Positions 1-63,875 of a DNA stretch of 64,000 nucleotides are shown here, piece by piece (the stretch's first letter is position 1; each line of letters opens with the position of its first letter). The stretch is from Alloascoidea hylecoeti (lineage: Eukaryota). Location: the NCBI GenBank assembly GCA_001600815.1, contig BCKZ01000008.1, forward strand, positions 310,001 through 374,000, in the 5' to 3' direction. The notes below the pieces were generated by a model that was not told the origin of the DNA, made no database searches, and was given only the letters and a program-made list of their open reading frames with translations. A program made the position numbers and the translations under genes.

Positions 1-1938
1 CAAAATGAAAAAAAAAAATATGAAGAACGATTTTCAAAATTGTTAGAATCATGTTCACCAAAAGTTAAATCATCACTCACTAGAAATGTTCAAACGGGTC
101 ATAAGTTCCCTTTTACGGCTCTTGAACTATTCATGAAGGAAGAAAAAGAAAAATTAAATAAAAACTTTGTACTTAAAAATTGTTATTTAACATGGGAAAA
201 TCTGTCACAACAAGAAAAGGATAAATATAAAGAGAAATTTAAAACCTTATATGTAAAACCATCTTTGACGTCAGATTCATCTACAACTACAGAAGAAAAT
301 TGTACATATTATAAAATCCCAACACAATCTTTTCTTTTATTTTTGGTTGAGCAACAAGAAAAACTTGGTGAAGATTATAATTATAAAGATTGTTTTGAAG
401 TCTGGAAACAACTTCCGGAGCAGGAAAAGGATGAATACAGAGAGAGAGTTAATGCTATTCACAAAGATATAGATATTGATAAATATAATCCTTCAAGACC
501 AATTATTAGACAATATACTTCACGAAAAATTGAAACAACACCTATAAAGGACATTTCTGATGATGATATTCCAACCACAGAAAGTCACCCTAAAACCTTA
601 AGCTTGAAAAATTCATCACAAACGACAAGACAAATACAAAATAAACTTAATTCCATACTAACCGAACCCAATGAAAACAACACTATACCTAAGAATGGTT
701 ATCAGCTTTTCATAAAAGAAGACAAGCAAGATCTTGGCGATGAATATTTGTACAATAACGCGCTTGAAACATGGAAAAATATGTCACAAGTAGGAAAGAA
801 TATATATATAGAGACACTCAATGCCCTTAAAATTTTCATAGAAGAAAACAAAAAAACACTTGGAGAGAAATATATAGAAAAAGATTGTCTTAAAACTTGG
901 AGAAATATGTCACAAGAAGAAAAAGACATTTATCAAGAGAAACAAATTAATGATACATTAATTGAAAATAGTACTAATAGTATTCCTAAGAATGGTTATT
1001 GTCTATTTTTACAGGAAAAAAACGAAGAGCTTGGGAGAAATTATAGACTAAAAGATTGTATTAATACATGGAAAACAATGTCACAAGAAGAAAAGGATGT
1101 ATATAAAGAAAAACTTGATACCATGAAACTTTTCATAAAGGAAACTAAAGAAAAACTTGGAAAAAAATATATTGAAAAAGATTGTCTTAAAACTTGGAGA
1201 AATATGTCACAAGAAGAAAAAAATGTATATCAAGATAAACTTAATGGTGGTATATTGGTTACATCCAACAAAATTCCAAAGCTTGCTCGTCATGTTTTTA
1301 TACAGGAAACAAAAGAAAAACTTGGGGATAATTATGTGGAAGAAGACTGCGTTGCGACTTGGAAAAAGATGTCACAAAAAGAAAAAAATGCTTATAAAAA
1401 GAAATCAAAGATTGTATCAAATGAGGATAATAACATACTTAAGGATTCCTTTTTGCTTTTTCTACAGGAAATAAAACAAGAACTTAACGATGATTATGTC
1501 CACAATGAATGTGTAATAACCTGGAAAAACATGACACAAGAGGAAAAAAATGTATATAAAGAAAAACTTGATGCCATGAATTTTTTTATACAGGAAACGA
1601 AAAGAGAACTTGGAAACAAATATGTATCAAAAGATTGGATTATAGCTTGGAGAGATATGACACAAAAACAAAAGGATTCTTACAAAGAGAAACTTAATGC
1701 TACATTAGTTGAAATAAATGAACTGCCTGGGTTTGGTCGTCATATTTTTATACAAGAAAAAAAAGAAGAACTTGGGGAAAAGTTTAATCTCAAGAATTGT
1801 CTTGCTGCATGGGGAAAAATGTCAAGAAAAAACAAAAATGTATATAAAGAGAAACTTGATATTGCAAAACATTCTATGGAGAAAACAAAAAAAGAACTTG
1901 GGGAAAATTATGTTGAAAAAGACGATCTAAAAATATGA
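1..1938 (+). CDS. Poly-HMG-box-like repeat protein (5'-truncated by window edge)
   Basis: Frame is open from base 1 (QNEKKKYEE..., the tail of a further repeat). Ten complete ~40-aa units F(I/L)xExKxxLGxxYxxKDCxxxWxxMSxxEKxxYxEK match the HMG helix-1 aromatic/F core and the helix-3 W..LS..EK..Y motif. Confidence 0.75.
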   Translation, partial: QNEKKKYEERFSKLLESCSPKVKSSLTRNVQTGHKFPFTALELFMKEEKEKLNKNFVLKNCYLTWENLSQQEKDKYKEKFKTLYVKPSLTSDSSTTTEENCTYYKIPTQSFLLFLVEQQEKLGEDYNYKDCFEVWKQLPEQEKDEYRERVNAIHKDIDIDKYNPSRPIIRQYTSRKIETTPIKDISDDDIPTTESHPKTLSLKNSSQTTRQIQNKLNSILTEPNENNTIPKNGYQLFIKEDKQDLGDEYLYNNALETWKNMSQVGKNIYIETLNALKIFIEENKKTLGEKYIEKDCLKTWRNMSQEEKDIYQEKQINDTLIENSTNSIPKNGYCLFLQEKNEELGRNYRLKDCINTWKTMSQEEKDVYKEKLDTMKLFIKETKEKLGKKYIEKDCLKTWRNMSQEEKNVYQDKLNGGILVTSNKIPKLARHVFIQETKEKLGDNYVEEDCVATWKKMSQKEKNAYKKKSKIVSNEDNNILKDSFLLFLQEIKQELNDDYVHNECVITWKNMTQEEKNVYKEKLDAMNFFIQETKRELGNKYVSKDWIIAWRDMTQKQKDSYKEKLNATLVEINELPGFGRHIFIQEKKEELGEKFNLKNCLAAWGKMSRKNKNVYKEKLDIAKHSMEKTKKELGENYVEKDDLKI

Positions 1939-2226: not shown

Positions 2227-2812
2227 TAGCATATGGTCAAACTAAACGGTAAAAATCATATTTTTTTAGACCAACGTTTTTGTAGTTCTATCATAAACCT
2301 TTTTAACATATGTGTACATGTACACATAGTTACTCTCAACTTGCAATATATTTAATTGCAATATTCATTAAATCAAAAATGAATAGTTTAAGGTTTAAAA
2401 CGTGAGCAAATACATGTATGTCTGATGGGCATCCCCAAATGGGGATAGTTCTTTGTTTGACTATTAGTGTCTCTATTGGGCAAGAGGTAAACACAAAATC
2501 TGACACTAGAAAATATTGAAGTTGGGTTATGCATCTGCATAATAACTTCTTACTGTTTTAGTTTAAATTTATCATGTGTGCCACGCGAATATCAGTGCGC
2601 TTATCGTTGTAAGTATATTGTAATTATAAAGTTCAGCTTACTTGTTTATTTTGTTGCTTGGTTTATTTGATTTTGAACTACAATTGCTTCTTTTTATATA
2701 GACCCATATATATAAATTTTTATATTCTACTTGAAACTATCTTTTTGTTTATTTTCCTTACAATTTCTCTTCATAATTAATGATATATCTTTAAATAAAC
2801 ATTCAATTTCAA

Positions 2813-4222
2813 ATGAATTGTGATTCAGAGTTATTTTTGTTTGAAAACACAACAGATTATATCTATCCTAATTACAAGAAGAAAAACATAATCGCTATAG
2901 GCCATGATAATTATCAATTCGACCAAAATGATCATGAATATATGACGGTGGATTATAAGGCCTTAAAGCATATTAATCGAGATCTTAAAAAGAATATTAA
3001 TGATTCAAATCTAGCACATGTGCGGAACTCTCTGATCACTAAAGAACTGGATTTAATTAAAAGCAATCGACTACAATCGAGGGAAATACAAGAACCGGCG
3101 CTTGATGTAACTTTTAAATCAGAAAGAATAAAGATACCTTGTGATAATTATAATACTCCTTATAATCATGCACATGATGATGGAACAGCTAATGCAACGA
3201 AAGATTTGATAAAACTACGACTTGTTGAAGGAATAACGAAAGAAAAATTAAATGCGGTTGAAGAAGACCGATTAATATGGGAAAAGGAAAATGGGGAAAA
3301 AGTTAAACGGAGAACTGGTTTAGGCATACACTTTGACTTAATAAATAATAATTCTATTAATCTACAGAATCCAAAAACTTTTATGATGATGAAAGCTCCA
3401 GCAAATGAATCAATATATTCAAATTCACTTAATACTAAAGGTTCTGATTATCTATCAATATCCTCTAATTATAACCGAATTTTAAATAGTAGTTTAAACG
3501 CTTCAAAGACTACACATTCTATGAATAATACTACTATGGAATACCCAGATGTGCTAAATCATTATTTCTATAGGCTGGCAGAGAAAAAAAGACAGATAGT
3601 GGAGCTTTCAGAAAAGCTACAAGAAGCACAACAGAATTATCAAATCATGGAAAGGAATAGCCCTATATTAGGTTTTTCACCTCAATTGTCAAATTTTCCT
3701 AATTCATCAACTTCTAATTCACCTCTAGTGCATTTAGAGAATTTGGAGGATATGTTTACTTTCGAATCACCAAAACTAAATCTGAATCTTTTTGGGGAAC
3801 ATTTTGGTAATGATTCAAACGATCATTTTAAAAGTGGTAAAGTTAACATATACTTGTCTAACACTCCACCTCAAACTTCCCATTCTCCTATGGCAGATCC
3901 TACTCTTGCTCCTAATTGTCTTTCCAGTATTCCTCATCCTATTTACACTGCTTTAAATCCTCCTCCTTCTGTTCCTTCCAAAAGTAATGCATCTGCTTAT
4001 CCTAAAACAAATTCAAAGAATTCAAGAGACCTCAGTAATGCTGAAGCAAAACCAAAGGAAAATGAATTAATAAGATCAATATCAATATTAATTAAAACAT
4101 TTTTAAGATCATTATTATCAAGATTTAGATCATTATCATTAAGTTGTAAATCGATACTAAGAACAAAAAATAATAGCAGTGACAAATATAATAGTCATAA
4201 TATCGATATCAATAACAACTAA
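2813..4222 (+). CDS. Hypothetical protein with a central coiled coil and an S/P/N-rich region
   Basis: 469-aa ORF with ATG after a TATA-rich promoter. RLAEKKRQIVELSEKLQEAQQ looks like a coiled coil. No family recognised. Confidence 0.6.
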   Translation: MNCDSELFLFENTTDYIYPNYKKKNIIAIGHDNYQFDQNDHEYMTVDYKALKHINRDLKKNINDSNLAHVRNSLITKELDLIKSNRLQSREIQEPALDVTFKSERIKIPCDNYNTPYNHAHDDGTANATKDLIKLRLVEGITKEKLNAVEEDRLIWEKENGEKVKRRTGLGIHFDLINNNSINLQNPKTFMMMKAPANESIYSNSLNTKGSDYLSISSNYNRILNSSLNASKTTHSMNNTTMEYPDVLNHYFYRLAEKKRQIVELSEKLQEAQQNYQIMERNSPILGFSPQLSNFPNSSTSNSPLVHLENLEDMFTFESPKLNLNLFGEHFGNDSNDHFKSGKVNIYLSNTPPQTSHSPMADPTLAPNCLSSIPHPIYTALNPPPSVPSKSNASAYPKTNSKNSRDLSNAEAKPKENELIRSISILIKTFLRSLLSRFRSLSLSCKSILRTKNNSSDKYNSHNIDINNN

Positions 4223-6382: not shown

Positions 6383-9025
6383 TATGTTGTTGACCGTGAT
6401 CCGTGGTACAACCCTTATATGTATATATTGAATTTGACGATGATCATAAACTGTTTGGTGGGACTTTTTTTTTGTGAGAATTAACCTATAAGACCTTAAA
6501 GATGAATCGAAAATCTCGCCAATAACACTTACTATATATATATATGCACATATGATGGCTTACTGTATATGGTAATGTATTGAGTAGAATGGGAAAAAAG
6601 AACGTTATCACCAAATTGATTCTATTTGCATACAACTTCAGAATTGTTATTTGTTGGAAGTGACAGTTGGTAGAGTTAGTTTCCACTGAATCATCCACAA
6701 GACCTTAAAAGGTTCGGTTCTCAAAATAATGCATTATAATATATATTAATGTTTCGTAGATACTTGAGATTATATTAGTCTACAAAATGAAATCTTAAGT
6801 TTACTGTTAGACAGTGTTAGTGTTCTAAGAGGCATGGATTATTAGAATCTCAGATTCCCAACCAGCTTATACACAATGAAGTACGACTTCCTTTCCAAAA
6901 TCCAGTTCATGCCGGTATGTAGTATGCACCATGTTTATCATATACGTATAATTATAGACTTACAGAGCCATGCTTCCCTGTAATAAATACTTTTTGGTTC
7001 AAAGAACTGCATAAGAGGTTTATACTTTTTCGAATGCAGATCTTGTAGCACCCGGCCATTTAAATACAATGGCCATGCAAATGCATTCATTGCATTACCT
7101 CTTCAAAGTTGCGTTCTTGTAAAAGTTGACCTGCATATTTTCCAAATCTTTATTATTTGCAACAAGGTTTTTAAAAAACATATAAGTAGCAAAGAAATCC
7201 TACGATACCAAACTAGAAACTTATTTCAAGATATTGTCTTCTAAATTCAATAAAATGGGTAGCTGTTTTTCATCTACAAAGGGCACAACAAGTGTTAATG
7301 GTGTCCCTATCTGGTACAAAACCTAGAAAACAAAGTACAATCACTAAACCAGAGGTTCCTAAACCATACCGAACTTTACCAAATGATAAACATTATCATC
7401 CTACATCTTCGAATACTGCTCATGGTGATGCGTTAGACAATTCAATTGCATTTGCTACTCCAATGTACTCCGTTCATTCTAGTGGAAGAAAAGGAAGTAT
7501 GAATTTACGAGCCTGAATTTAACCACGTCTAAGACTCATTAACACTAAACGGAACAATGATTTTGCACTTTATTTTTGTTTCTGTTATAGTGATTGTTTC
7601 AATTGTTGAAATTTTTCGAGATGCAACATTTGTTCCCATTAATATCTATGCATTCATTGATGATAAATTAGTTTTATAGTTAGCGGTATATGTATGTCAT
7701 TTCAGGTTGCTTAACTTTTCTGAATCATCAGTATTAATTATTGTATAAACTTTATAAGGCTATATACGGTTATAATTATATTATAAAATAAAAGTAAAAA
7801 AATTAAAGAAAAAGTAGCAGTAAAGAGATAAGATAAAACTTTTTAAATACATGAATTTATATTTCAAAATCATTGTTTTAAGAAAAAGGTAAAAGAAAGG
7901 AGTTTTATAATTGAAATCTAGAAATTTCATATCATTTGTATCAATCACCCAATATTGTAAAGTGTAATTGTTATATTAAATTAGCAGGAATAACTTTGTA
8001 AGAAGTTTTAGTAATTGTAACTGGAAGTGTAGAGTAATAATATATGATTAAGCATAAAATATAAAGCAATAAGATATAAAGTAATAATGACAATAATAGT
8101 AATATTTTAATTAAAATAAAGAGAATCAAAAATCCTAGTCTTTTTCATATAATAATAAGATAATATGAGCACATTTTCAACGTAGATTTTGATTTTCATA
8201 GGCAATTGTTTTCCAGATTTATCAAATGAGCACCACACTATTCCTTCTGGCCAAACACCACCTAGTAATTAATAGCCGAAACCCAATGATCATGGGGGTG
8301 AGCAGATGTGGCGAAACTTGAAAAGTGACCTGCCGTAAGGTTGGGGTGCTGGATATTATACCGCCCTTAGAACAGTTCACAATAGGTCAATTGGATTTTT
8401 GGCATAACTGGGAGAAACAGGCACTTAGAACTTTACCATTGGGATCACACACTGGGCTAAACATTTCAACCCCATAATAAGCAGAATTAAAGGTTCTTTT
8501 CCAGTACAAACACCATCACTAGCAAATTTACAAGAAGTTTTCTATCCATCCGCTACAAACAGTAACACGCGTATTCCTCTAGAATAAACAGTATTAGATA
8601 TACAGCCGTATTGTAGGTTCCGCCTTCTTTGCTATTCAAAACTCACAATCTTTGTTCCAAAAGGTTCCTCATTATTTCAGGCTACCGCTACGGAAGCAAC
8701 AGCTCAGATTTCAGTTTTCTTCATACATTCATCACCTCACTATTCTCTGGTTCACTATGATCAGACTTGAATGGATACCCATTGGATAGAATTCAAAGAT
8801 TGTGGGTTAAACACTCCATAATCAACAGTAGCAGGGAAGCAGCCTCATTTACAGTGTTTACACCACAACCTTCCAATCGACTAGAAGTACCTTATCAACA
8901 CATCGCACGTATCCCACACTCCTGGTAACCACATAAGCTATACCTTCTCCATCACATTTATTGTGCACAAATTTCTCTCAGTTTATCAATAATTTTTTAA
9001 GCTCACCACCATACAACAGCGTGAC

Positions 9026-9122
9026 TCAATCCAAAACACGTTTAAAAACTTGTTCCCTACAAGTGATAGTTACAAATTTATTTTGGTTATGGGAACAAGT
9101 TTAGAAACGTGTTTTGGATTGA
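9026..9122. repeat. 32-bp inverted repeat with 33-nt loop
   Basis: tcaatccaaaacacgtttaaaaacttgttccc (9026-9057) pairs with gggaacaagtttagaaacgtgttttggattga (9091-9122); 2 mismatches. Confidence 0.85.
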
Positions 9123-13421: not shown

Positions 13422-14532
13422 TTAATCTATATCCATTCTATTTGATGTATCAGCGTCATCGGTAGCATTTCCTGTTGTTGACTCAGTAGTATTTTCTATA
13501 GCAGCATCTGTCGTAGTAGCTGGTGCAGCAGTTTCAGTAGCAGTATCATCATCATCATCAGAATCAGAATCATTATCATCACCTCTTGTTCTAGTATTTG
13601 AAACTGAACCTAATTTCTCTAACCAAACTTGAACTTTTGCATCATCTAATATAGTAAATTCTTCACCTTTACCAACAAAGGCAATAGTTGTATTTTTTTG
13701 ATTTAATTCCCGATCTTGAGCTAAAGTATCTCTTAAAGCAATTAAAGCATGATTAATTAATTCCTCTAAACTTGAATCAGCAAATAATTCAAAAGATTTT
13801 TCTAAATAAGTTCTTGCAGCTTGTGATCTTGCACCAATAGCAGCACCAAAATATTCTAAAACTGACCCACTTGGTTGAAATTCAAATAAATGTGGACCAG
13901 ATTCATCAATACCAACAACTAATAAACCAACACCATATGGTCTACCACCATAACTTTGAGTATTTGATTGTGCTTTATCAGCAATTGAATTAACTGCTCT
14001 TTCAATTGGTAATGGTAAATTTAAAATTAATTTTGAATGTAAGGCTTGTTTTCTTAAATAATTTGATAAAACTCTTGCATCTGGTGCTAAACCTGCTAAT
14101 GCAATACCTATATGATCATCAATTTTGATAACTTTTTTTTGATATGAGCCTAGTTCTTCAGCATTTCTCTAATTATAATTTTATAAAAATATTAATGACT
14201 AAAGATTTGATAAAATTGGATGGCAAAAACACAAAGTTGAAAAATACATACCTTTAAAGCAACGAGAACAGCATGAGTTTTGGAAACTAGACCAACGGCA
14301 GCACTTCCTTGTTTGATTGCTTCAAGTGCATATTCGACCTATTATTTGAGAAGAAATTGTTAAGAATTGACTTTTTGTGCTTCATAAATTGAAAGTGAAC
14401 ATACTTGAAATAATCTGCCTGTAGGGGAGTATGTAGTTGTATCATTGTCATAATTATTTCTAAACTTCGGATGATGATGTAAAATTAGCAATTGAGACAG
14501 TTATATGCAACTTTAATGAAAAACCATACCAT
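13422..14532 (-). CDS. PRE5: 20S proteasome alpha-6 subunit, 3 introns
   Basis: Exons 14530-14532 (ATG only), 14405-14464, 14252-14338 and 13422-14168 give [38 protein letters not shown]...[12 protein letters not shown]...MDID*. Missed by the ORF track. Confidence 0.95.
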
Positions 14533-14590
14533 TTTGGAGATGAAGATGAAGATACACACCAAACTTGAATTTGAAGGTGAGTTTGGACAA

Positions 14591-19126: not shown

Positions 19127-21751
19127 ATGAGTCTCTTTAATACATATGAATCCGACTCCTCTGATGATATTTATGATGAAGGTGAGAGCTCAAGAACATC
19201 GGAAGATATTCATACTTCTTTGGAGCGAGAGGCTTCAGAAATTGTGAGACACCAAGGCTCACAATTTGCTAATATTGTATTGAACTGGCCCTGTAATGGG
19301 AGGAATTTTACTTTATCCAGAGAGTTAGAAAACTGTACTAAAGTTCCACTCCATTTCACTTCTCTGCATCAATATAAAAGTATATTCAGATCATTGGTGA
19401 AACTTGAATGTTGGGATGCTCTAAGAGGAGCTAAAAAAGGTCAAATGTTGAAAAAGGGTATGTCAATTAACATTTTGACTGCGAGTCAAATGACTGATGG
19501 TTGGACAGTTGTTGAAGCTCATGTCAATAAGAAAGAAGCAATACAAGTTAATATTGCAGAACATGACTTGTTGCTTGTCTGTACTTTGAGTGGTAGAAGA
19601 ACTGAACTTCCTAACAGATTGAAGATTTTTGAAGAGTCAGTTCATAATTCCTGTTATGCAAAAATCGCAAGGACAGAGCTAACTGATGATGACCGGAAAC
19701 TTAATATTAATTCACCACAATTGAATATAAATACAAAGTTAAAATTACTTTTCCTTACTTCCAAGTTTAATAATCAACGATTAATCTCTACTAATAGTAA
19801 AATATTTGCGTTAAATACTATTAATTTGATTTCTGCTGAGAGGGAGTACAGCGCAATCGATGAAGATTTTCCAATTTGGCTGGAAGATAGTATTGTTAAA
19901 GGTCGAACAGAACCTCTTTTTACATTGAACTCTAATGTTAGTGAAATGTTAAGGAAAGAATATAGGCTTAATGAATCACAAGCTTGTGCAGCAGCTGGAA
20001 CCATTAAAACTAACAAAGGGATTTCAATGATTCATGGTCCTCCAGGTACAGGGAAAACGAGTACAATTACCGCGATAATTAAATGCGCGAGCGATGAGCA
20101 GTTTCTCCAAAAATTGAAGGAAGTAGACCCAGAATTTGCATCTATAAAACCTGCCAAGAAAATATTGGTTTGTACACCAAGTAATGCGGCGGTGGATGAG
20201 CTGGTTAAGAGACTAAATATTATTTATCCGATTGATATCAGATCACCAAAAGTTATGCGAGTTGGTAACTCAAAACTCACAAGTAAAGGATCTAATAGAA
20301 ATACATTATCATCAGCAATCAAAAATAATAATATTTTCGAGCTTTTAAATAATGCTGGTGTTAAAGTGGAAGCGGGTCAATTTAATGAGGATTATTTGGA
20401 ACAAAAGCTTAGGGAAACTAATGAGTCTATACAAATATATCGTCAATTTCTCAGAGAAATTGGAAGAAGGCTCGATATTATCCCAGAAGAAGAGCATTCC
20501 AAACGAGAAGAGTTGGAAAACAGATCATCTAAATATTTCGCCAGCATACTTAGTCTTGAACACATTTTACAAATTTTAACTTCTTCCGGAAATCAGTCAT
20601 CACTAGAAAAAATGGATTTGTCCTCCAAAAGAGACGAAAAACTAAGATTGAAGGAGCAAAAGATGGATATTATAAGGAATGCTTCCGTTATATGTACAAC
20701 TTTAAGTGCCTCTGTTAGTGCATTCATAAAAGATTCAGCAATATTTTTTGACATTATTATCATCGATGAAGCTGGTCAATGTACAGAACCTAGTTTACTG
20801 GTACCTCTAAAGTACGAAACAAGTCATGTTATTCTTGTTGGAGACTCAAAACAACTCCCACCGACTGTGATGTCAAAAACAGCTCTGCAAGAGTTCAATT
20901 ACGAACAAAGTTTGTTTCTTCGTTTAGAGAAGACAAATCCCGCACAAAATTATTTCTTGAATACACAGTATCGAATGAATCCTAGAATATCAGAATTTCC
21001 AAATAATACCTTCTATCAGGGCAAACTAATTAACGGAACTGATATGTCAACGAAAACCAAAAAAAATTGGCATAATAAATCAATATCTGGAATTAAAGCT
21101 TCAGAATACGCATTTTTCGATGTTACATATGGAATGCATCGGAAAGTTGAGTATGGTTTCTCCATATACAATGAAGAGGAGATTGATTTTGCGATTAGTC
21201 TAGTTGAGGGTCTAGAAAAGTTAGACAATTCTTTATGGAATACGGCTTCAGAGGAAGAATTAATGGAAACTATAACTGACGTTGCATCAAAAGAAGAAAA
21301 AATGGTGATGTTACAGGAGATTAGGTCCCAATCAGGTAAATTGGGAGTTATAAGTCCTTATAAGGAACAATCAAAGAGAATGAAGGAGGCATTTGAAAAG
21401 AAATTTGGCATTGAAAAGTCAAATACAATACAATTCAATACGGTCGATGGGTTTCAGGGCCAAGAGAAAGAAGTAATTATTTTCTCAAGCGTTCGTACAG
21501 GTGAGGGTGTTGGATTTTTGAGAGATCTTAGAAGGCTAAATGTTGGTATCACTAGAGCCAAAAGCAGTCTTTGGATTCTTGGAAATTCCAAATGTTTGAC
21601 TGAAAACCAAACATGGAAAGCTCTCATAGATGATGCAAAGCAAAGAGGCTGTTATAATAGAGTTGAGTCTCCTATGCACGAAAATACTGAAGAGCTCAAT
21701 GAGGAACATGTTTTGACTCTTTTCGATAGATTAAGTTTAAGAGAAGATTAA
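19127..21751 (+). CDS. Sen1-like SF1B (Upf1-family) helicase, helicase module only
   Basis: FRSLVKLECW, EREY, LNESQ, IHGPPGTGKT, LVCTPSNAAVDEL, IIIDEAGQC, LVGDSKQLPPTV, LNTQYRMNP, GVISPYKEQ, TVDGFQGQEK, RRLNVGITRAK. The large Sen1 N-terminal domain is absent. Confidence 0.9.
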   Translation: MSLFNTYESDSSDDIYDEGESSRTSEDIHTSLEREASEIVRHQGSQFANIVLNWPCNGRNFTLSRELENCTKVPLHFTSLHQYKSIFRSLVKLECWDALRGAKKGQMLKKGMSINILTASQMTDGWTVVEAHVNKKEAIQVNIAEHDLLLVCTLSGRRTELPNRLKIFEESVHNSCYAKIARTELTDDDRKLNINSPQLNINTKLKLLFLTSKFNNQRLISTNSKIFALNTINLISAEREYSAIDEDFPIWLEDSIVKGRTEPLFTLNSNVSEMLRKEYRLNESQACAAAGTIKTNKGISMIHGPPGTGKTSTITAIIKCASDEQFLQKLKEVDPEFASIKPAKKILVCTPSNAAVDELVKRLNIIYPIDIRSPKVMRVGNSKLTSKGSNRNTLSSAIKNNNIFELLNNAGVKVEAGQFNEDYLEQKLRETNESIQIYRQFLREIGRRLDIIPEEEHSKREELENRSSKYFASILSLEHILQILTSSGNQSSLEKMDLSSKRDEKLRLKEQKMDIIRNASVICTTLSASVSAFIKDSAIFFDIIIIDEAGQCTEPSLLVPLKYETSHVILVGDSKQLPPTVMSKTALQEFNYEQSLFLRLEKTNPAQNYFLNTQYRMNPRISEFPNNTFYQGKLINGTDMSTKTKKNWHNKSISGIKASEYAFFDVTYGMHRKVEYGFSIYNEEEIDFAISLVEGLEKLDNSLWNTASEEELMETITDVASKEEKMVMLQEIRSQSGKLGVISPYKEQSKRMKEAFEKKFGIEKSNTIQFNTVDGFQGQEKEVIIFSSVRTGEGVGFLRDLRRLNVGITRAKSSLWILGNSKCLTENQTWKALIDDAKQRGCYNRVESPMHENTEELNEEHVLTLFDRLSLRED

Positions 21752-51869: not shown

Positions 51870-52680
51870 CAGTCCTTCTACCTATTAATAGCGCTATTTT
51901 CGAAAATAATTAGCGATCTGTCTGAGAATTAATTAGCGTTATTTCCGTAAATTAATTAGTGTTGGCTCTGGAAATCAATTAAAATAAAATTTGATAATTA
52001 ATTAGTGTTGCTTCAGATAATTATTTAGCGTTACCTAGGATAATTTGGTAGTGCTATTTTCGAAAATTGTTTGGTCAAATTTAGCGTTACTTACGAAAAT
52101 TAATTAGCGCTATTCTATAAAATTATTTAGCGATCCGTATTAATTATTAATTAGCCACTTACTCGAAAATTAACTAGTGATCCGTGCAAAAGATTATTGG
52201 TGAAGTTGATGAAAATTAATTAGATTTATCTTTGAAATTTAATTGGCGCTATCTGTAAAAATTAATTCTCAAACAGAGCACCAATTAATTTTTACAGATA
52301 GCGCCAATTAAATTTCAAAGATAAATCTAATTAATTTTCATCAACTTCACCAATAATCTTTTGCACGGATCACTAGTTAATTTTCGAGTAAGTGGCTAAT
52401 TAATAATTAATACGGATCGCTAAATAATTTTATAGAATAGCGCTAATTAATTTTCGTAAGTAACGCTAAATTTGACCAAACAATTTTCGAAAATAGCACT
52501 ACCAAATTATCCTAGGTAACGCTAAATAATTATCTGAAGCAACACTAATTAATTATCAAATTTTATTTTAATTGATTTCCAGAGCCAACACTAATTAATT
52601 TACGGAAATAACGCTAATTAATTCTCAGACAGATCGCTAATTATTTTCAAAAATAGCGCTATTAATAGGTGGAAGGACTG
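51870..52680. mobile_element. Non-autonomous foldback element (Tc1/mariner/pogo-type ends) with ~398-bp inverted arms built from 23-bp subrepeats
   Basis: TA|CAGTCCTTC...GAAGGACTG|TA. Arms 51870-52267 and 52283-52680 differ at 2 positions; 15-bp spacer ctcaaacagagcacc. Confidence 0.8.
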
Positions 52681-58200: not shown

Positions 58201-58349
58201 GGATTTCAGATATATTGCATTTATAATCTTATGAAATCTATCAGCGAACATAAACTACCTAAAATTCTATATATAAACGTCGGTGAATCTGCTAAAAAAT
58301 AAAAAACAGATCTATCAACTTCAATCTTGATTAATTATATTTAATAATA

Positions 58350-59495
58350 ATGGTAAAATCAACAACAAAAGCGGTAACAGCCAAAGACGTTCAGAATAGC
58401 GGATTGGTATCTACATTTTGGTGTCATATCACTCCAAAGATTCCACCGCCATTCCCAGAATTAGAGGAATTCTTGAATAAAGTTTCCCATAATCAGTCAA
58501 ATAACCCCACGAAGAAAAGAAGAAGAAGAAAGCCTGCCAATCTTTCCCCCAATAAACCTAAAAGAATAAATGGATTTCTAGCATTTAGATCCTATTACTC
58601 AAGAGATCTAACATTTTTAATTCCTCAATGGGAACTCTCAAGCATATTTGCCCATCTATGGTCTCTAGAAAGTAGCCAACATGTCTGGGAAAGATTTGCT
58701 GAAGATTACAACACAACTACAAACAATCAACTTCCATTCTGCGATTGGATTTTAACAGTTACAAGTCCTACTTCTTCTCTACCTAAAATTTCTTCTCTTC
58801 CTAAAATTTCTACTCTACCTAAAATTTCTTCTCCTGCTCCTAAAAGAATCAATAAACTTACAGTGTCACCAAAAAAGAAATATTTTAACAAGTCGTTACC
58901 ATATCGAGCTGCAAAAGCCAGTCCAAAATCTCAATACATAAATTTTAGTGTGAGTCCAAACAACTCTAATGTTTATGTTACTCCAAATCAGACTCCGGAA
59001 CCAAGTATAAATTCATCTGTAATTGGCTCAGATAGAATGGTTTCACCCCCTTCAAGTCCTTACAACTATGGTAATATTTCTCCTTACACTCCTTCGCAGA
59101 CGCCCATATATAATTATGATGATGCATTTTCAAGTTTTATATCTCTTTCTTCTCCAGTAAAACCAAATTACAATTACTACACTGCTACAGATAATGGTCA
59201 ATATCAATATATGAACCCTGTTGAGAACATTTCATTAGAAGAATCTGCTGCTTCTAAAGTTTTGAAAAATAATATCGAATCATGGTTAGTAGATACAACG
59301 GAGCAGGTCTATGATGATAGATTAACACCAGAAGAAAATGATATGCTACGGGCTATACCAGCATTCTTAGAAGAGGACAGTAGAAACACAACATTCGAGG
59401 CCGAAGGAATGGATTATAATAATTATCTTGATCTGGAATTTGATCATAATCTGGAAGTAGATTCCAGCGCAAATATTTTTGGGTTTGGATTTTGA
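58350..59495 (+). CDS. MATalpha1: Mating-type alpha-box transcription factor (MATalpha1 / MAT1-1-1)
   Basis: KPKRINGFLAFRSYYSR..QWELSSIFAHLWSLE..QHVWERFAEDYN alpha-box. Tail-to-tail with SLA2, the conserved MAT neighbour. Confidence 0.9.
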   Translation: MVKSTTKAVTAKDVQNSGLVSTFWCHITPKIPPPFPELEEFLNKVSHNQSNNPTKKRRRRKPANLSPNKPKRINGFLAFRSYYSRDLTFLIPQWELSSIFAHLWSLESSQHVWERFAEDYNTTTNNQLPFCDWILTVTSPTSSLPKISSLPKISTLPKISSPAPKRINKLTVSPKKKYFNKSLPYRAAKASPKSQYINFSVSPNNSNVYVTPNQTPEPSINSSVIGSDRMVSPPSSPYNYGNISPYTPSQTPIYNYDDAFSSFISLSSPVKPNYNYYTATDNGQYQYMNPVENISLEESAASKVLKNNIESWLVDTTEQVYDDRLTPEENDMLRAIPAFLEEDSRNTTFEAEGMDYNNYLDLEFDHNLEVDSSANIFGFGF

Positions 59496-59862
59496 TATTG
59501 TAAGTAAACGTCATAAAAAAGACGTATAAAAATATAGATATGCCTGTACAATATATATAAAATATGTTATTTAGCTACAATTATTGAATTGAAACTAATT
59601 AATTATTTATTTTTAATTTTTATAAATTGTTTGTAGTTCACATGTCGAAATAAAAAAAAGTACCAAAAATTTCAAAGTGCATATGAGTAAAGGTATAGGG
59701 TTTATATAACTATTGACAATTTAAGTTGATATGGCTTTAAGGACAAAGGTGAATTATCAATACTATATTTTTAAATGATGTAGATATTGATAAGAAAGAC
59801 GAACAATAAACAGTAAAAAAATTATATATATAAAAATTGAGATTCCCTATGAAAAGGATTGT

Positions 59863-62800
59863 TTAACTTTCAACAATGCCTTCCTCGGCTTCATCCTTAT
59901 AACTATACTTTCTAATTTCACCTAATTTCTTTCTTGCTCCTTCTAATTCATTCTGTAATTTCAAAATTTCCACCTGTTGCTCCATTTCTGTTGTCTTCAG
60001 AACATGTGGAGCAAACTTGGAGTAGTCAATTTCCTCATGGCTTTCCTTATATCTCTTTGATAAGATTTCTTGAACTTGGTTAACCAATGACCTACAAGCA
60101 GATGTAACAGCCTTACTAGCAGATTCAAGACGGTCTTGAGTTTTACTCATAAATGTAGCCTTAACTCTTGAAGCAGCGACCAATTGGGCTGTAGAAGCAG
60201 CGACTTCATTAGAGGCAACAATCAGTTGTTCAGGACTATTTTTTGCGTTTAATACACCATCAGCCGTTTCAATCAAGATGTTTGTAGAAGCAGCAACAGC
60301 TTTAGCAGCAGATATTAAACCTTCAGTCCATCTATTATTTTTTTTGTAGAAAGTTGTTCTAGAATCCGAACCTCTACCTTGACTTACAATTTCACGTTGA
60401 GATTCAGTAGCCGCTCGAATCAATAAAGCAATGGCATTTGTAACAGCTATAGCAGCAGCTAAAATAGCTCTGTTAATCTTCATATCAAATTCAGAAATGG
60501 TTGGATCCTGTGGTCTTTCTAGGAGATTTGTTAATCTTTCACTTGCGGCAGCAATTGCATCAGCAGCAGATTCCATTTCACGATCAACTAATTCACCAAG
60601 ATCGCCATCCATTTTTTTAAGATTTGATCTTGGTAATAATGTATCGGCCAATGCAAACAATTTATCCAATTCTTCTTGGAAAACAAAGTTTTCATCAATA
60701 ACTTTATCAGTTTTTTCTTCAACTGATAAATTTTTAATATTTTCAGATAATAAGCTATTAAAAAATTTCCCTGCTGCTTGAGCAGATCTTCTAGCAGAAC
60801 CAATGATATTATCAGCATCTATATCAGTTTTAGCTAATCTTACAATACCTTTCGTATTCAAAACAATATCCGAAACAGCGGTTGTAAACGTTGCAGCAGT
60901 ATTAATAATTTCAGAATGATCATCACCATTTGGTCCCTCTGCCACAAAATTGTTAAAAGCTGTGGCAAAATCAGTCGCAGAAATAGATGCTTTTTCAATA
61001 ACAGATAATAAATATTCAGGTGATGAATTTTGATTACCAGCTTGCATAGGAGAATCCAATTCAAATAATGCATCTTGGATACGCTTTGAACTACTTAATA
61101 AAATTGAATCAATAATACTTGTTAATTTTCCCAAATGATCAAGAATTAATTTATCAATTTCATCATTTAATGCACTATCTTCTGCAGAACGATCATTTGT
61201 TGCATTAGCTAATTCTTGTAAAGCTGTATCTAAAGATTCTTGTAAAATTTCCAATTCTTCATCTTTATCACGAAGTTTAAATTCAAAATCTTCATTCAAA
61301 GCTCTTGAACCATCTTGTTCAGATAATCTTTTCTCCAAATCTGCAACTTCTTTTTGATGTTGTTTTAAAATTAATGATAAGTTTGAACTTTGGGATCTTT
61401 CAGTACTATCCAATTTTTCTTTTAATAAACGAATATCACGTTCTAATTTTTCAACTTCATCTTTAGAACCACCTCTAACTTTATCAAGTTCATATCTCGC
61501 TCTGTCACGTTCTCTAATCAAATCAGCTAATTCCAAGTTTTTAGTCTTTAAATCACGTTCAGCTTTTTCACGTTTTTCAATGGCTTCTTGAGCAGAAGCA
61601 GCTTTTTGTTTATATTGTTTATATTTATTTAATAAATCCAAATGTTCTTGTCTAAGTTGAGAATATAATTTAGCTAATGCTTCATATTTCGATTTCCATA
61701 AATTAATTTGTTCTTGTAATGTTTTAATCATATCATCTTTTGAATTAATTTGTAAAGCAGTATTTGAATTTACTTGAGCTAATTCAGTTTCCAAAGCACG
61801 AACACGTTGATCATATTGTTGTAACATTAATTGATCTTTTTCAAATTGACCACGCAAGTTCAAAATATCACGTTCCAATTCAGCAACACGACCTTGTGCT
61901 TGTGCTTGAACTTGTTGCTGTAATAATTGCTCTTGGGCTAGTCTTTGAGCTTCAGCCTGTTGTCTTTGTTGTTCTTCAAATTGTTGTTGTTGTTGAGCTG
62001 CTAATTGTTGTTGTCTTGCTAGTTCAGCTTCACGTTCTTGTTGTAATCGAAGTTGCTCTGCTTCATATTGTTGTTGAGCTTGTTCGGTAGACCAAAAATC
62101 CACAACGGGTGCAGGATCAGCAGCCGGTGCAGGTGAAGGAGTCACTTCACGAGAAGATTCTTCATTTTCTCGTCTTTTAGGTAAGCGTGGAGCATTACCA
62201 TCATCATCCAAGAATAAATCTGGAGGATCAACAGTCAATCTTGGAATGGTGATGAGGGAAGTTAAATATCTTAAAGATTGACAATCGCTGTAAAAATTAA
62301 ACAGTCTATGATGTTGAGAAGCATATCTTGTGCGTAATGGTTCCAAAGCATCATCAGAGCCTGTGACACTATGCATAGCTCGCAACATACTTGTGCAAAA
62401 CTTGTAAATTCCATAACTTTCAGCAATCAATGGAGTCAAGGCGGATATTTTGCATTCACTAGCTTTTGTGTGAGTTATGCTGGCAAAGATTAACTTTTGG
62501 AGGTCATCAATTGAATCTTGAAGAGACATTAAATCTAAAATAACTTCATATCCTTCATTGGGATCACTTGTAGATTTCAAACTAATGTATTCTTCATACT
62601 CGAACATTCCATTAAAAGCAGGGTGAAGTTTGTGGAAATTCAACTTTTGGAGGAGGTATCTGTCGTATTCACGGATAAGCCTACCATAACCCTTAAAACC
62701 ATCTCCATGAAAAACCCTTCCGAAAGACTCAATAAAACCAATATTTCTCTGGGCTTCAACCAATGCAGATGGATGGCCTTCTTGAAGAACTTTGTGAATC

Positions 62801-62991
62801 ATGATTAGAGCCTTGAAGGCCTGGACTTCATCCCCTTGTACCGGTTGAATTTTCAGAGCATTCCATAGGGCTCTGGAGGTTTTGTGGTCCCAAGTATAAA
62901 CAATGCAGTTACGGACATGTTTCCGCTTAGGGGCCGACTCTTCTTGACTGGTGGCCTTTTTGACGGCAACAGAAAGGTCTGTGCTGCTCAT
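59863..62991 (-). CDS. SLA2: Sla2/End4 endocytic adaptor (ANTH, coiled coil, I/LWEQ)
   Basis: APKRKHVRNCIVYTWDHK, FYKKNNRWTEGLISAAKAVA, ASTAQLVAASRVKA, EMEQQVEILKL. Confidence 0.98.
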   Translation of the reverse strand: MSSTDLSVAVKKATSQEESAPKRKHVRNCIVYTWDHKTSRALWNALKIQPVQGDEVQAFKALIMIHKVLQEGHPSALVEAQRNIGFIESFGRVFHGDGFKGYGRLIREYDRYLLQKLNFHKLHPAFNGMFEYEEYISLKSTSDPNEGYEVILDLMSLQDSIDDLQKLIFASITHTKASECKISALTPLIAESYGIYKFCTSMLRAMHSVTGSDDALEPLRTRYASQHHRLFNFYSDCQSLRYLTSLITIPRLTVDPPDLFLDDDGNAPRLPKRRENEESSREVTPSPAPAADPAPVVDFWSTEQAQQQYEAEQLRLQQEREAELARQQQLAAQQQQQFEEQQRQQAEAQRLAQEQLLQQQVQAQAQGRVAELERDILNLRGQFEKDQLMLQQYDQRVRALETELAQVNSNTALQINSKDDMIKTLQEQINLWKSKYEALAKLYSQLRQEHLDLLNKYKQYKQKAASAQEAIEKREKAERDLKTKNLELADLIRERDRARYELDKVRGGSKDEVEKLERDIRLLKEKLDSTERSQSSNLSLILKQHQKEVADLEKRLSEQDGSRALNEDFEFKLRDKDEELEILQESLDTALQELANATNDRSAEDSALNDEIDKLILDHLGKLTSIIDSILLSSSKRIQDALFELDSPMQAGNQNSSPEYLLSVIEKASISATDFATAFNNFVAEGPNGDDHSEIINTAATFTTAVSDIVLNTKGIVRLAKTDIDADNIIGSARRSAQAAGKFFNSLLSENIKNLSVEEKTDKVIDENFVFQEELDKLFALADTLLPRSNLKKMDGDLGELVDREMESAADAIAAASERLTNLLERPQDPTISEFDMKINRAILAAAIAVTNAIALLIRAATESQREIVSQGRGSDSRTTFYKKNNRWTEGLISAAKAVAASTNILIETADGVLNAKNSPEQLIVASNEVAASTAQLVAASRVKATFMSKTQDRLESASKAVTSACRSLVNQVQEILSKRYKESHEEIDYSKFAPHVLKTTEMEQQVEILKLQNELEGARKKLGEIRKYSYKDEAEEGIVES

Positions 62992-63875
62992 TTCTCTTAG
63001 TTTAAATTTAATAGGCTTTGGTGTCTGTTGGAGGAGTAGTAGAACCGAAGGCTATGAATCAGGCGTATGGGTGTCCCGGACGCATATGCACGTTAACCTT
63101 GGGTTAGCCTGTATATTTTAATTCTTAATGGTAAAACTACTTCCAAACAGCTTTTCGTAATGATATTCAGCTATTGGAAGTAGCTCATGGCAAGATCAAC
63201 GTTGAAGGTGAGACAAAAAAAGTGGCAAATTTTAAAGGATCATTATGCGACGATAAAATGCAACATGGTTTTGTTTTAAACTTCACTTTCTTGGTTTACA
63301 ATCCAGATCTGTTGTATTTACATGCAACTTAATCTCTTTTACAAACCTTTTTGATATAAACTCCAAATATATATAATATTACCAGCTTAATTTATTGAGT
63401 TTGACAGGAAATGGCCTTCTGATAGCGGAAAGGGCCTAGGCCTGATAAAGTACTATCCAGATCTGTTGAAATGACGTTTTTCAAAGCTTTCAATCTAGTT
63501 CTACTTTCAATTTCAAGGCAATCTATTCATGAACTTTATTTTGTCAGTAATGGTTGTACAAATGATTCATAAATTATTCAAATTTATATATATATATATT
63601 TAAAAATGGCATAAATATTCATAAGTATTTTATAACAAAAGAGAAACATGTATACTAAAAGATTTATAAATTTATAAAAAAAATAACGAAAAAAAAAAAA
63701 AAAAAAAAAATAACAAGAATATATTTAAATTTTAAACATTTCTTCTTTATAACGTACCACAATCATAACTTGACAAAGACATAATTAAGCGAAATAATAA
63801 AAATAATTTAACATAATTAACTAATCAGGAATTTATAACAAAAATAATAATAGTAGGAATAATTTTTTTTAATAA

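Follow-up and report, generated by a model that had tools for sequence, protein, structure and literature searches.

A Sixteen-Unit HMG-Box Array Protein in the Yeast Alloascoidea hylecoeti and Its Probable Origin from a Four-Box HMG Family

What is the long run of repeats resembling high-mobility group (HMG) boxes with which one stretch of the genome of the yeast Alloascoidea hylecoeti opens, from which genes did it arise, and what might a protein built in this way do? The window, by which we mean the whole stretch of 64,000 nt analyzed here (GenBank assembly GCA_001600815.1, contig BCKZ01000008.1, positions 310,001–374,000 of the forward strand), begins inside a single gene whose product we call P0001. 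An earlier reading made from the sequence alone, hereafter the sequence-only reading, had seen in it a recently amplified, lineage-specific array of miniaturized HMG units. We find that the array belongs to a protein of sixteen complete units, that this protein descends from a small family of four-box HMG genes in the same genome, and that its N-terminus resembles a mitochondrial presequence. Coordinates without a prefix are those of the window; C8 denotes the window's contig, other contigs are labeled likewise, and units are counted U1–U17 from the N-terminus, anchored on a conserved Trp.

Extent and Units of the Gene

The genome comprises 24.8 Mb in 136 contigs at ~30% GC, and the gene crosses the left edge of the window. 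Its 3' part, amino acids 416–1060 and the stop, occupies positions 1–1938 on the + strand as a single open frame of 645 amino acids. The ATG lies 1,245 nt upstream of the window (C8:308756; L005:6756), the frame is open for 1,082 codons, and the predicted protein has 1,060 amino acids, ~127 kDa, and an isoelectric point (pI) of 8.8. It contains 16 complete HMG-type units and a truncated one, and the 415 amino acids encoded upstream supply a presequence-like first 43 residues and U1–U6. The sequence-only reading of at least ten tandem units with partial units at both ends is borne out inside the window, where 10 complete units lie between the tail of U6 and a fragment of U17; its extent is right for the window's frame but stops 415 amino acids short of the gene.

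The anchoring Trp residues stand at amino acids 79, 173, 243, 299, 345, 411, 480, 550, 673, 715, 772, 814, 869, 923, 965, and 1019, and the in-window Trp codons at 193, 403, 772, 898, 1069, 1195, 1360, 1522, 1648, and 1810; Trp90 and Trp961 are not anchors, and both fall within units. A 42-amino-acid period fuses four pairs head to tail, as had been noticed (U9–U10, U11–U12, U14–U15, and U16–U17), and the remaining in-window unit spacings are 54–123 amino acids. From left to right on the + strand, the window thus holds the end of U6 helix 3 (1–30; its Trp, amino acid 411, is just upstream), the cores of the solo units U7 (121–234, W480) and U8 (331–444, W550), which have Leu and Tyr, respectively, at the site equivalent to TFAM L182, a U8/U9 spacer of ~75 amino acids (450–680) that is rich in S, T, D, and N and, judging from this composition, likely disordered, the fused pairs U9–U10 (700–939, W673 and W715) and U11–U12 (997–1236, W772 and W814), the solo unit U13 (1288–1401, W869), and the fused pairs U14–U15 (1450–1689, W923 and W965) and U16–U17 (1738–1938).

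The truncated U17, at ~1864–1938, is cut at its Trp position and has lost the core F and C, and its in-frame remnant includes the helix that would complete U16. The frame had been said to end through a change of this Trp codon from TGG to TGA. The stop does lie at the Trp position, but when the DNA is aligned to that of U10, U12, and U15, a deletion of 5 nt appears there; the sequence behind the stop is decayed helix-3 DNA, and a point change is the less likely cause. The motif IPK(NG), previously taken for the end of a linker, stands ahead of U8, U9, U11, and U13, with other residues in its place ahead of U14 and U16; it aligns with P158–Y162 of TFAM box B and is better read as the N-terminal HMG strand of the following unit.

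HMG-Box Identity and Range

As a whole, P0001 exceeds the Pfam cut-offs for PF00505 and PF09011 (72.7 bits against 25.4 and 79.6 bits against 22.4, respectively). Of 13 units searched one at a time, 8 reach E <= 0.05 with PF09011 and 7 with PF00505, and these scores, together with the predicted fold described below, uphold the HMG-box identity first proposed. A profile built from 13 units finds 16 stretches in P0001, 13 of the strong matches being the training units themselves; it misses only U1 and finds U2 marginally (E 0.16). Against the PDB, the ten best sequences for this profile are all TFAM, aligned to box B (E 5e-5 to 5e-4), and the best single-sequence match is UBF box 3 (E 0.002). 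Relative to TFAM box B, the units are three residues shorter between helices 1 and 2: the distance from the core F to W is 21 residues in array units, 24 in TFAM box B and in most of boxes 1, 2, and 4 of the paralogues introduced below, and 28 in paralogue box 3.

Searches of the genome at the DNA and protein levels, in which copy counts are lower bounds, find one copy of the gene. A search of 5.8 billion clusters (8,000 best candidates scored, 583–1855 amino acids) returned only a fragment of P0001 itself, and phmmer over 1.84 billion representatives returned two own fragments and one unrelated-looking multi-HMG protein of 512 amino acids (P0004, E 8e-4). The unit profile run against longer proteins found two own fragments only, which is weak evidence, and the best ESM Atlas scores (0.85 and 0.78) belong to generic HMG clusters that serve as leads only. 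The searches support the earlier proposal that the array is restricted to this lineage, with no homologue found outside the species. Three metatranscriptome runs gave only chance matches of 23–33 nt and are uninformative on expression. A transposon origin was rejected, and with it the suggestion of transposon domains upstream of the window: no transposon family appears in a Pfam search of P0001, the gene occupies a single locus, and no flanking inverted repeat rises above chance level.

Origin from a Four-Box HMG Family

A search of the genome with PF00505 found three four-box HMG genes on contig C11 (P0005–P0007), two of them in tandem (C11:400088–402259, L019, and C11:235289–236284, L021). 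Their products have presequence-like starts, are 59–64% identical to P0006, and differ from P0001 in their length of 323–327 amino acids, their four full-length boxes, and their pI of 9.4–9.7 against 8.8. In the search of 5.8 billion clusters, P0006 retrieved only the three paralogues and no relatives elsewhere, and in the PDB it comes closest to an SRY/HMGB1 chimera and TFAM (E 1e-12). These genes are likely this yeast's equivalents of Abf2 and TFAM, with more boxes and more copies than in the yeasts described in the papers cited below.

Two units of P0001 can be assigned to individual boxes of this family. U1 aligns without gaps to paralogue box 1 with scores of 88–96, compared with maxima of 57–62 among shuffled sequences (5,000 each), and U2 aligns without gaps to box 3 with scores of 86–102. 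A box-1 profile picks U1 (E 4e-8) and a box-3 profile U2 (E 3e-9), each far above other units, and the box-4 and box-2 profiles favor units of the array, the best being U11 (E 1e-8 and 1e-7, respectively). When the genome was searched with amino acids 36–215 of P0001, the six best of the seven non-self matches were boxes 1 and 3 of the three C11 paralogues (E 7e-4 to 0.015). P0001 aligns collinearly with the paralogues; box 2 has been eroded, and U3 occupies the position of box 4. A tree built from 34 boxes unites U3–U16 in one clade (95/99), groups U1 with box 1 (94/92), and puts U2 in the box 1/box 3 group.

Judged by sequence, the four-box family's boxes 1 and 3 survive as U1 and U2, in order and right behind a presequence-like start, and P0005–P0007 are the direct source family. 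The scores do not decide whether the ancestor of the array was box 4 or box 2; position favors box 4. We conclude that P0001 descends from the TFAM-like, presequence-bearing HMG genes of this lineage.

Amplification and Selection

Self-comparison of the DNA gives long matches at offsets of ~99, 154, and 250 codons, 68–71% identical, and an unconstrained tree of U7–U17 groups the four trailing units (U10, U12, U15, and U17). An organization in pairs above the level of units, as first described, thereby gains support with a weak bootstrap; an approximately unbiased (AU) test of the grouping was uninformative, as the free tree already satisfied the constraint. The sequence-only reading had called the amplification recent. 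Because U9–U16 are 58–85% identical in DNA and their pairwise synonymous divergence (dS) is 0.37–1.28 (28 pairs), the array is not a fresh amplification, and these distances indicate that it did not expand very recently.

Across U7–U16 (38 codons), pN/pS is 0.64, compared with means of 0.93–1.00 in neutral simulations, of which 2 of 1,600 runs were at or below the observed value. Six of the 38 columns are invariant; neutral runs reached at most three, none of the 1,600 had six, and none was free of stops. A codon model gives an omega of 0.18 (p 1.4e-10 vs. omega 1), with about one quarter of sites at an omega of about 1, the freest being −24, −23, −19, −8, −7, and −2 relative to W. U7–U16 align without any gap; in a PRE5 pseudogene used as a yardstick, there are 19 gap openings and 135 mismatches in 772 aligned bases. 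These patterns indicate that units 7–16 are under purifying selection, and they agree with the earlier description of a fixed scaffold with variable positions. Positive selection was not detected in these units (M2a log-likelihood equal to M1a, p = 1; 10 sequences of 38 codons, low power), so the further idea that the variable positions read a target sequence draws no support from this test.

The PRE5-like proteasome subunit pseudogene itself (L005:5493–6353; C8:307493–308353) ends 400 nt upstream of the ATG of the HMG gene. It is a copy of the gene at 13729–14551, with both introns kept, 70% identity, and many indels. Non-coding DNA lying a short way downstream of an APSES/KilA-N gene has a copy with 72% identity (7764–8148, − strand, and L006:2207–2662), which also points to local duplication and inversion.

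Predicted Structure and DNA-Contact Residues

In the AlphaFold2 model of the fused pair U11–U12 (predicted local distance difference test score, pLDDT, 90.4; predicted TM score, pTM, 0.77; five models at 83–90), there are five helices, at residues 10–25, 28–37, 40–67, 70–79, and 82–95. The third is a single continuous helix of 28 residues that serves U11 as helix 3 and U12 as helix 1. In a wide VIA search with the model, HMG-box chains fill the first 25 of 50 rows (9rn2_W judged by its entry title). Model residues 4–68 cover the whole of UBF box 6 (Z 5.9, root mean square deviation [rmsd] 2.5, 65 aligned), and further matches are SSRP1 (Z 5.7), TOX (rmsd 2.2), and TFAM 156–222 (Z 4.8). U11 is thus predicted, with a modest Z and a pLDDT of 90, to adopt the three-helix L-shaped HMG fold.

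We read the leading unit of a fused pair as a nearly whole L-shaped HMG box, predicted to use the first helix of its successor as a long arm. In the model, the last helix of U12 has 14 residues, short of a complete long arm, and there is no N-terminal strand, for which the 42-amino-acid period leaves no room; we read the trailing unit as a short-arm module. By sequence, helix 3 also ends early in the solo units. The earlier term "miniaturized" does not fit the leading unit as predicted. If helices are shared in this way, the in-frame remnant of U17 could have been kept because it would complete U16. Literature searches of titles and abstract openings found no protein with seven or more HMG boxes and none with overlapping boxes, although supplements might mention one.

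Contacts to DNA are known for related boxes. In Abf2, F51 intercalates and Y50, Y53, W81, and K89 contact the backbone; in TFAM box B, L182 intercalates and the helix-1 site is a polar N163; and Y50 and F51 of Abf2 and Y162, N163, and L182 of TFAM box B enter the minor groove (PMC7463775). Substituting W and the K at W+8, both conserved in Abf2 and TFAM, compromises Cim1 (PMC10681731). In P0001, W is present in all 16 units, of which it is the defining anchor, K/R at W+8 in 16 of 16 (one Arg), and an aromatic residue at W+11 in 16 of 16. Within U7–U16, F stands at −21 in all ten units, K/R at W+1 in eight, and K at W−16 in eight, and the helix-1 intercalation site is non-polar in three (L, C, and L). 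The TFAM-L182 site is L or Y in five of the ten (U7, U8, U9, U11, and U16); U14 has H there, and U10, U12, U13, and U15 have E or S. By class, the leading units have Y, L, H, and L, the solo units U7, U8, and U13 have L, Y, and E, and the trailing units have E, E, S, and E, which are not four independent events, since the trailing units are kin.

Probable Mitochondrial Targeting and the Mitochondrial DNA

The first acidic residue of P0001 is amino acid 44, which closes the longest acid-free run in the protein (the next is 27). At the composition of P0001, the chance of finding no D or E in the first 43 residues is about 4e-4, and the leader carries a net charge of +5 in 35 amino acids. Among the 21 N-termini compared for their acid-free length, only that of an mtHsp70-like gene (72) exceeds P0001; the paralogues give 25–38 and the other 16 give 3–20, with the reservation that a J-protein among these 16 was trimmed at the wrong start and is not a fair control. 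Amino acids 36–40 contain an R-3-like motif. P0001 is likely imported into mitochondria, and the presequence guessed at while the N-terminus lay outside the window finds support in this basic, acid-free composition.

The mitochondrial DNA (mtDNA) occurs in the assembly as fragments on C53, C63, C64, C65, C67, C72, C76, C78, C79, C80, and C84. Five of these contigs carry cox1, split into at least seven pieces, five carry cob-like pieces, and one a nad5-like piece; the cob and nad5 assignments are presumptive. Because cox1 and cob exons are mostly fused to long intron open reading frames (ORFs), the mtDNA is intron-rich; any link to P0001 is speculation. A search for repeated 24-mers gave no candidate target in 7 low-GC contigs of the 40 small contigs fetched, mostly not mitochondrial, which makes for an insensitive test.

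Proposed Function and Alternative Explanations

We propose, with a probability of about 0.55, that P0001 is an accessory mitochondrial-nucleoid protein, derived from the four-box family, that binds mtDNA multivalently through many weak contacts. According to this hypothesis, the first ~38–43 residues would, to judge by their composition, be a cleavable matrix-targeting presequence, and U3–U16 would stem from a shortened box that was duplicated internally, at a later stage in part as a module of two units, a pair-wise step to which the tree lends weak support. In a fused pair, the leading unit would keep its N-terminal strand and use helix 1 of the trailing unit as its long arm, which would yield a full L-shaped box, and the trailing and solo units are predicted to retain no more than the short arm and half of helix 3. 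All units keep the backbone-contacting Trp and Lys of Abf2 and TFAM, most are polar at the helix-1 intercalation site, the units carry little net charge, and the bulky residue at the TFAM Leu182 site is kept only by leading and some solo units; given this pattern, each unit should grip weakly and only some should bend DNA. The array would bridge or hold long stretches of mtDNA, and the three four-box paralogues, which are more basic, would continue to do the bulk packaging.

A number of observations weigh against this hypothesis. The mitochondrial role of the paralogues is itself presumed, the box tree has 50 columns only, with U1, U2, and U5 on long branches, and the grouping of trailing units has a bootstrap of 50%. 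A single pair (98 amino acids) was modeled, from an alignment of 12 pieces of P0001 itself; the best Z of 5.9 is below the tool's reliable level for helical models, and Foldseek with the same model returned nothing at E <= 0.001, most of its weak rows also being HMG boxes. The leader of P0001 is rich in K, Q, and N with one Arg, and its hydrophobic moment is low (0.30 vs. 0.34–0.49 for the paralogues and 0.51 for the mtHsp70-like gene). Net charge per unit ranges from −5 to +5 and the pI is below that of the paralogues, so the array may bind DNA poorly; the residue and charge pattern fits weak multivalent binding with bending at some units only and also fits a loss of DNA binding by the array.

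The integrity of the gene also bears on this question. A second public record splits P0001 into two products, amino acids 1–704 and 718–1060, each identical to P0001 and each on a contig of 17,226 nt, and full-length P0001 was not found in the protein collection that holds this record. The split coincides with the longest exact repeat in the gene, and its only long one, 48 nt on the + strand (877–924 = 1174–1221; amino acids 708–723 = 807–822). Given that short-read assemblies tend to break at such repeats, this coincidence suggests an assembly gap, with a nonsense allele as the alternative. In the genome assembly used here, the window and the 18 kb upstream of it contain no N.

A bolder extension of the nucleoid hypothesis, which we hold to be doubtful, is that helix-sharing makes HMG boxes into rigid "telescoped" pairs within long mitochondria-bound arrays, whose freely varying groove residues would recognize or organize an extended mtDNA target. 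Among the rivals proper, the one that survives best, itself improbable, is that P0001 is mitochondrial but anchored to DNA by U1 and U2 only, the array acting as a spacer made of helices, a scaffold on which proteins dock, or a surface that binds RNA, such as that of mitochondrial introns. The near-neutral charge of the units suits such a role, as do the DNA-wedge-equivalent sites (−24, −23, and −7), which are at an omega of about 1 while the core is fixed, and the intron-rich mtDNA, whose cox1 and cob are each in pieces across about five contigs. TFAM, moreover, reportedly binds RNA four-way junctions. A spacer would not obviously need the basic residues that the units keep, however: K/R at W+8 in 16 of 16, K/R at W+1 in 8 of 10, and K at W−16 in 8 of 10.

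It is unlikely that the array is instead a modular reader of sequence or shape, in which variable residues at the starts of helices 1 and 2 pick DNA steps and together specify an extended mtDNA site such as an origin, promoter, repeat, or invading element. Minor-groove positions of Abf2 and TFAM (PMC7463775) do fall among the most variable columns (−24, −23, −8, and −7), and the rigid shared helix of the model would fix spacing within a pair. The low-powered selection test gave no positive selection, however; pairs are joined by variable low-complexity linkers, the parent family is of the non-specific HMGB/TFAM type, and the insensitive search of the mtDNA contigs seen found no target repeat.

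It strikes us as quite improbable that this gene is an offshoot in decay or without expression, or one that part of the population carries in truncated form, so that its array has no present function. We found no orthologue in our searches, U17 is broken, the gene lies 400 nt downstream of the PRE5 pseudogene in a region with duplicated fragments, and the second record holds it in two pieces. Against this stand 1,060 stop-free codons at about 28% GC, the omega of 0.18, the lack of stop-free runs among 1,600 neutral simulations, and the absence of frameshifts among units that differ at 15–47% of bases, which attest to long-term selection and are not proof of function today. Least probable of all is a nuclear (or, as for Aspergillus HmbB, dual-located; PMC6483251) UBF-like chromatin architect acting on rDNA or other repeats: two UBF boxes, 6 and 3, rank with the best fold matches, and a single-sequence search of the PDB puts UBF box 3 first, but the protein descends from presequence-bearing paralogues, has no acidic tail and only one K-K/R-x-K/R motif, and shares the genome with two Hmo1-like and three Nhp6-like genes (named by resemblance).

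Other Features of the Window and Genome

About 56 kb from the array gene lies the mating-type locus, where a MATalpha1 HMG gene (PF04769, E 2.5e-11) stands directly beside an SLA2-type gene (58335–63051). Some 6 kb from this locus, at 51880–52670, degenerate 23-nt tandem units form mirror-image-like halves with periods of 23 and 56 on both sides of about 52270, possibly a large inverted-repeat element. The window also holds a proteasome subunit gene with introns and an Hsp70 gene, and this gene content, together with the MATalpha1/SLA2 pairing, points to a budding yeast. Upstream of the Hsp70 gene there is a near-perfect inverted repeat (9026–9122; 32-nt arms, 94% complementary, 33-nt spacer). 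An ORF of 475 amino acids at 2795–4222 (+ strand) has no Pfam match and one 71%-identical paralogue (C6:194628–195089), and is an orphan family. At 19127–21751 (+ strand), a Sen1/Upf1-type helicase of 874 amino acids (AAA_11 and AAA_12) is encoded in one frame, apparently without the long N-terminal domain, and is possibly a lineage-specific paralogue. Four related frames of 550–740 codons (L028, L029, L030, and L035), each with a C-terminal HMG box split by a long insertion, are a small expanded family of sequence-specific-type HMG factors.

Comparison with Known Systems

TFAM box B shares with the units of P0001 the F/Y...W...K...Y scaffold, the short connection between helices 1 and 2, and the polar helix-1 wedge site (N163; PMC7463775). 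TFAM as a whole differs in having two boxes, a linker helix, and a C-terminal tail, whereas the units of P0001 are three residues shorter, number 16 and a fragment, and are predicted to overlap in pairs. Two boxes are likewise the rule in Abf2, Cim1, TFAM, and Mhb1 (PMC10681731, PMC4725248) and in Gcf1, whose non-canonical boxes can bridge DNA without bending it (PMC10287934). Abf2, Cim1, Gcf1, and Mhb1 resemble P0001 in their presequence-like N-terminus and their boxes with conserved W and K(+8), as well as in fast divergence and a narrow lineage range (PMC4725248, PMC10681731). They differ in box number, and P0001, at ~127 kDa, is less basic than its own paralogues and shows no evident sequence-level orthology to these four. 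We do not file P0001 as an orthologue of Abf2 or TFAM, because it lacks their small two-box architecture: the mitochondrial HMG (mtHMG) nucleoid class comprises small basic proteins of 1–3 boxes, and P0001 has 16 units, 1,060 amino acids, and a pI of 8.8. It descends from mtHMG-like genes and presumably acts in an mtHMG-like manner.

Other proteins exceed two boxes. Aspergillus nidulans HmbB and Podospora mtHMG1 have a third, non-canonical "Shadow-HMG-box" (PMC6483251); they are, like P0001, fungal mitochondrial multi-HMG proteins with non-canonical extra boxes, but they have three boxes, and the excerpt of that paper mentions no tandem expansion. The vertebrate Pol I factor UBF/UBTF is nuclear and has six boxes, an N-terminal dimerization domain, and an acidic tail (PMC10435976). 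It resembles P0001 in carrying tandem boxes in one chain, some with short loops, and its boxes are top fold matches; P0001 instead opens with a basic leader followed by an HMG unit and closes with a truncated one, and a Pfam search of it gave no sign of the dimerization domain or of an acidic tail. Long HMG arrays are not unique to P0001, as P0004, an unnamed JGI/IMG metagenomic protein of 512 amino acids, has about seven short HMG-like units, is rich in A, P, and R, and likely represents an independent expansion.

P0001, known from one species, has 16 boxes, compared with two or three in the mtHMG proteins of the cited papers and six in UBF, and the predicted helix shared between two boxes is new relative to the literature searched. 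The mtHMG proteins are among the fastest-diverging mitochondrial proteins, for reasons that are unclear (PMC4725248). With three paralogues of four boxes and a single derivative of sixteen, this genome displays steps of the divergence and allows one to ask whether the number of boxes tracks the size or the intron load of the mtDNA.

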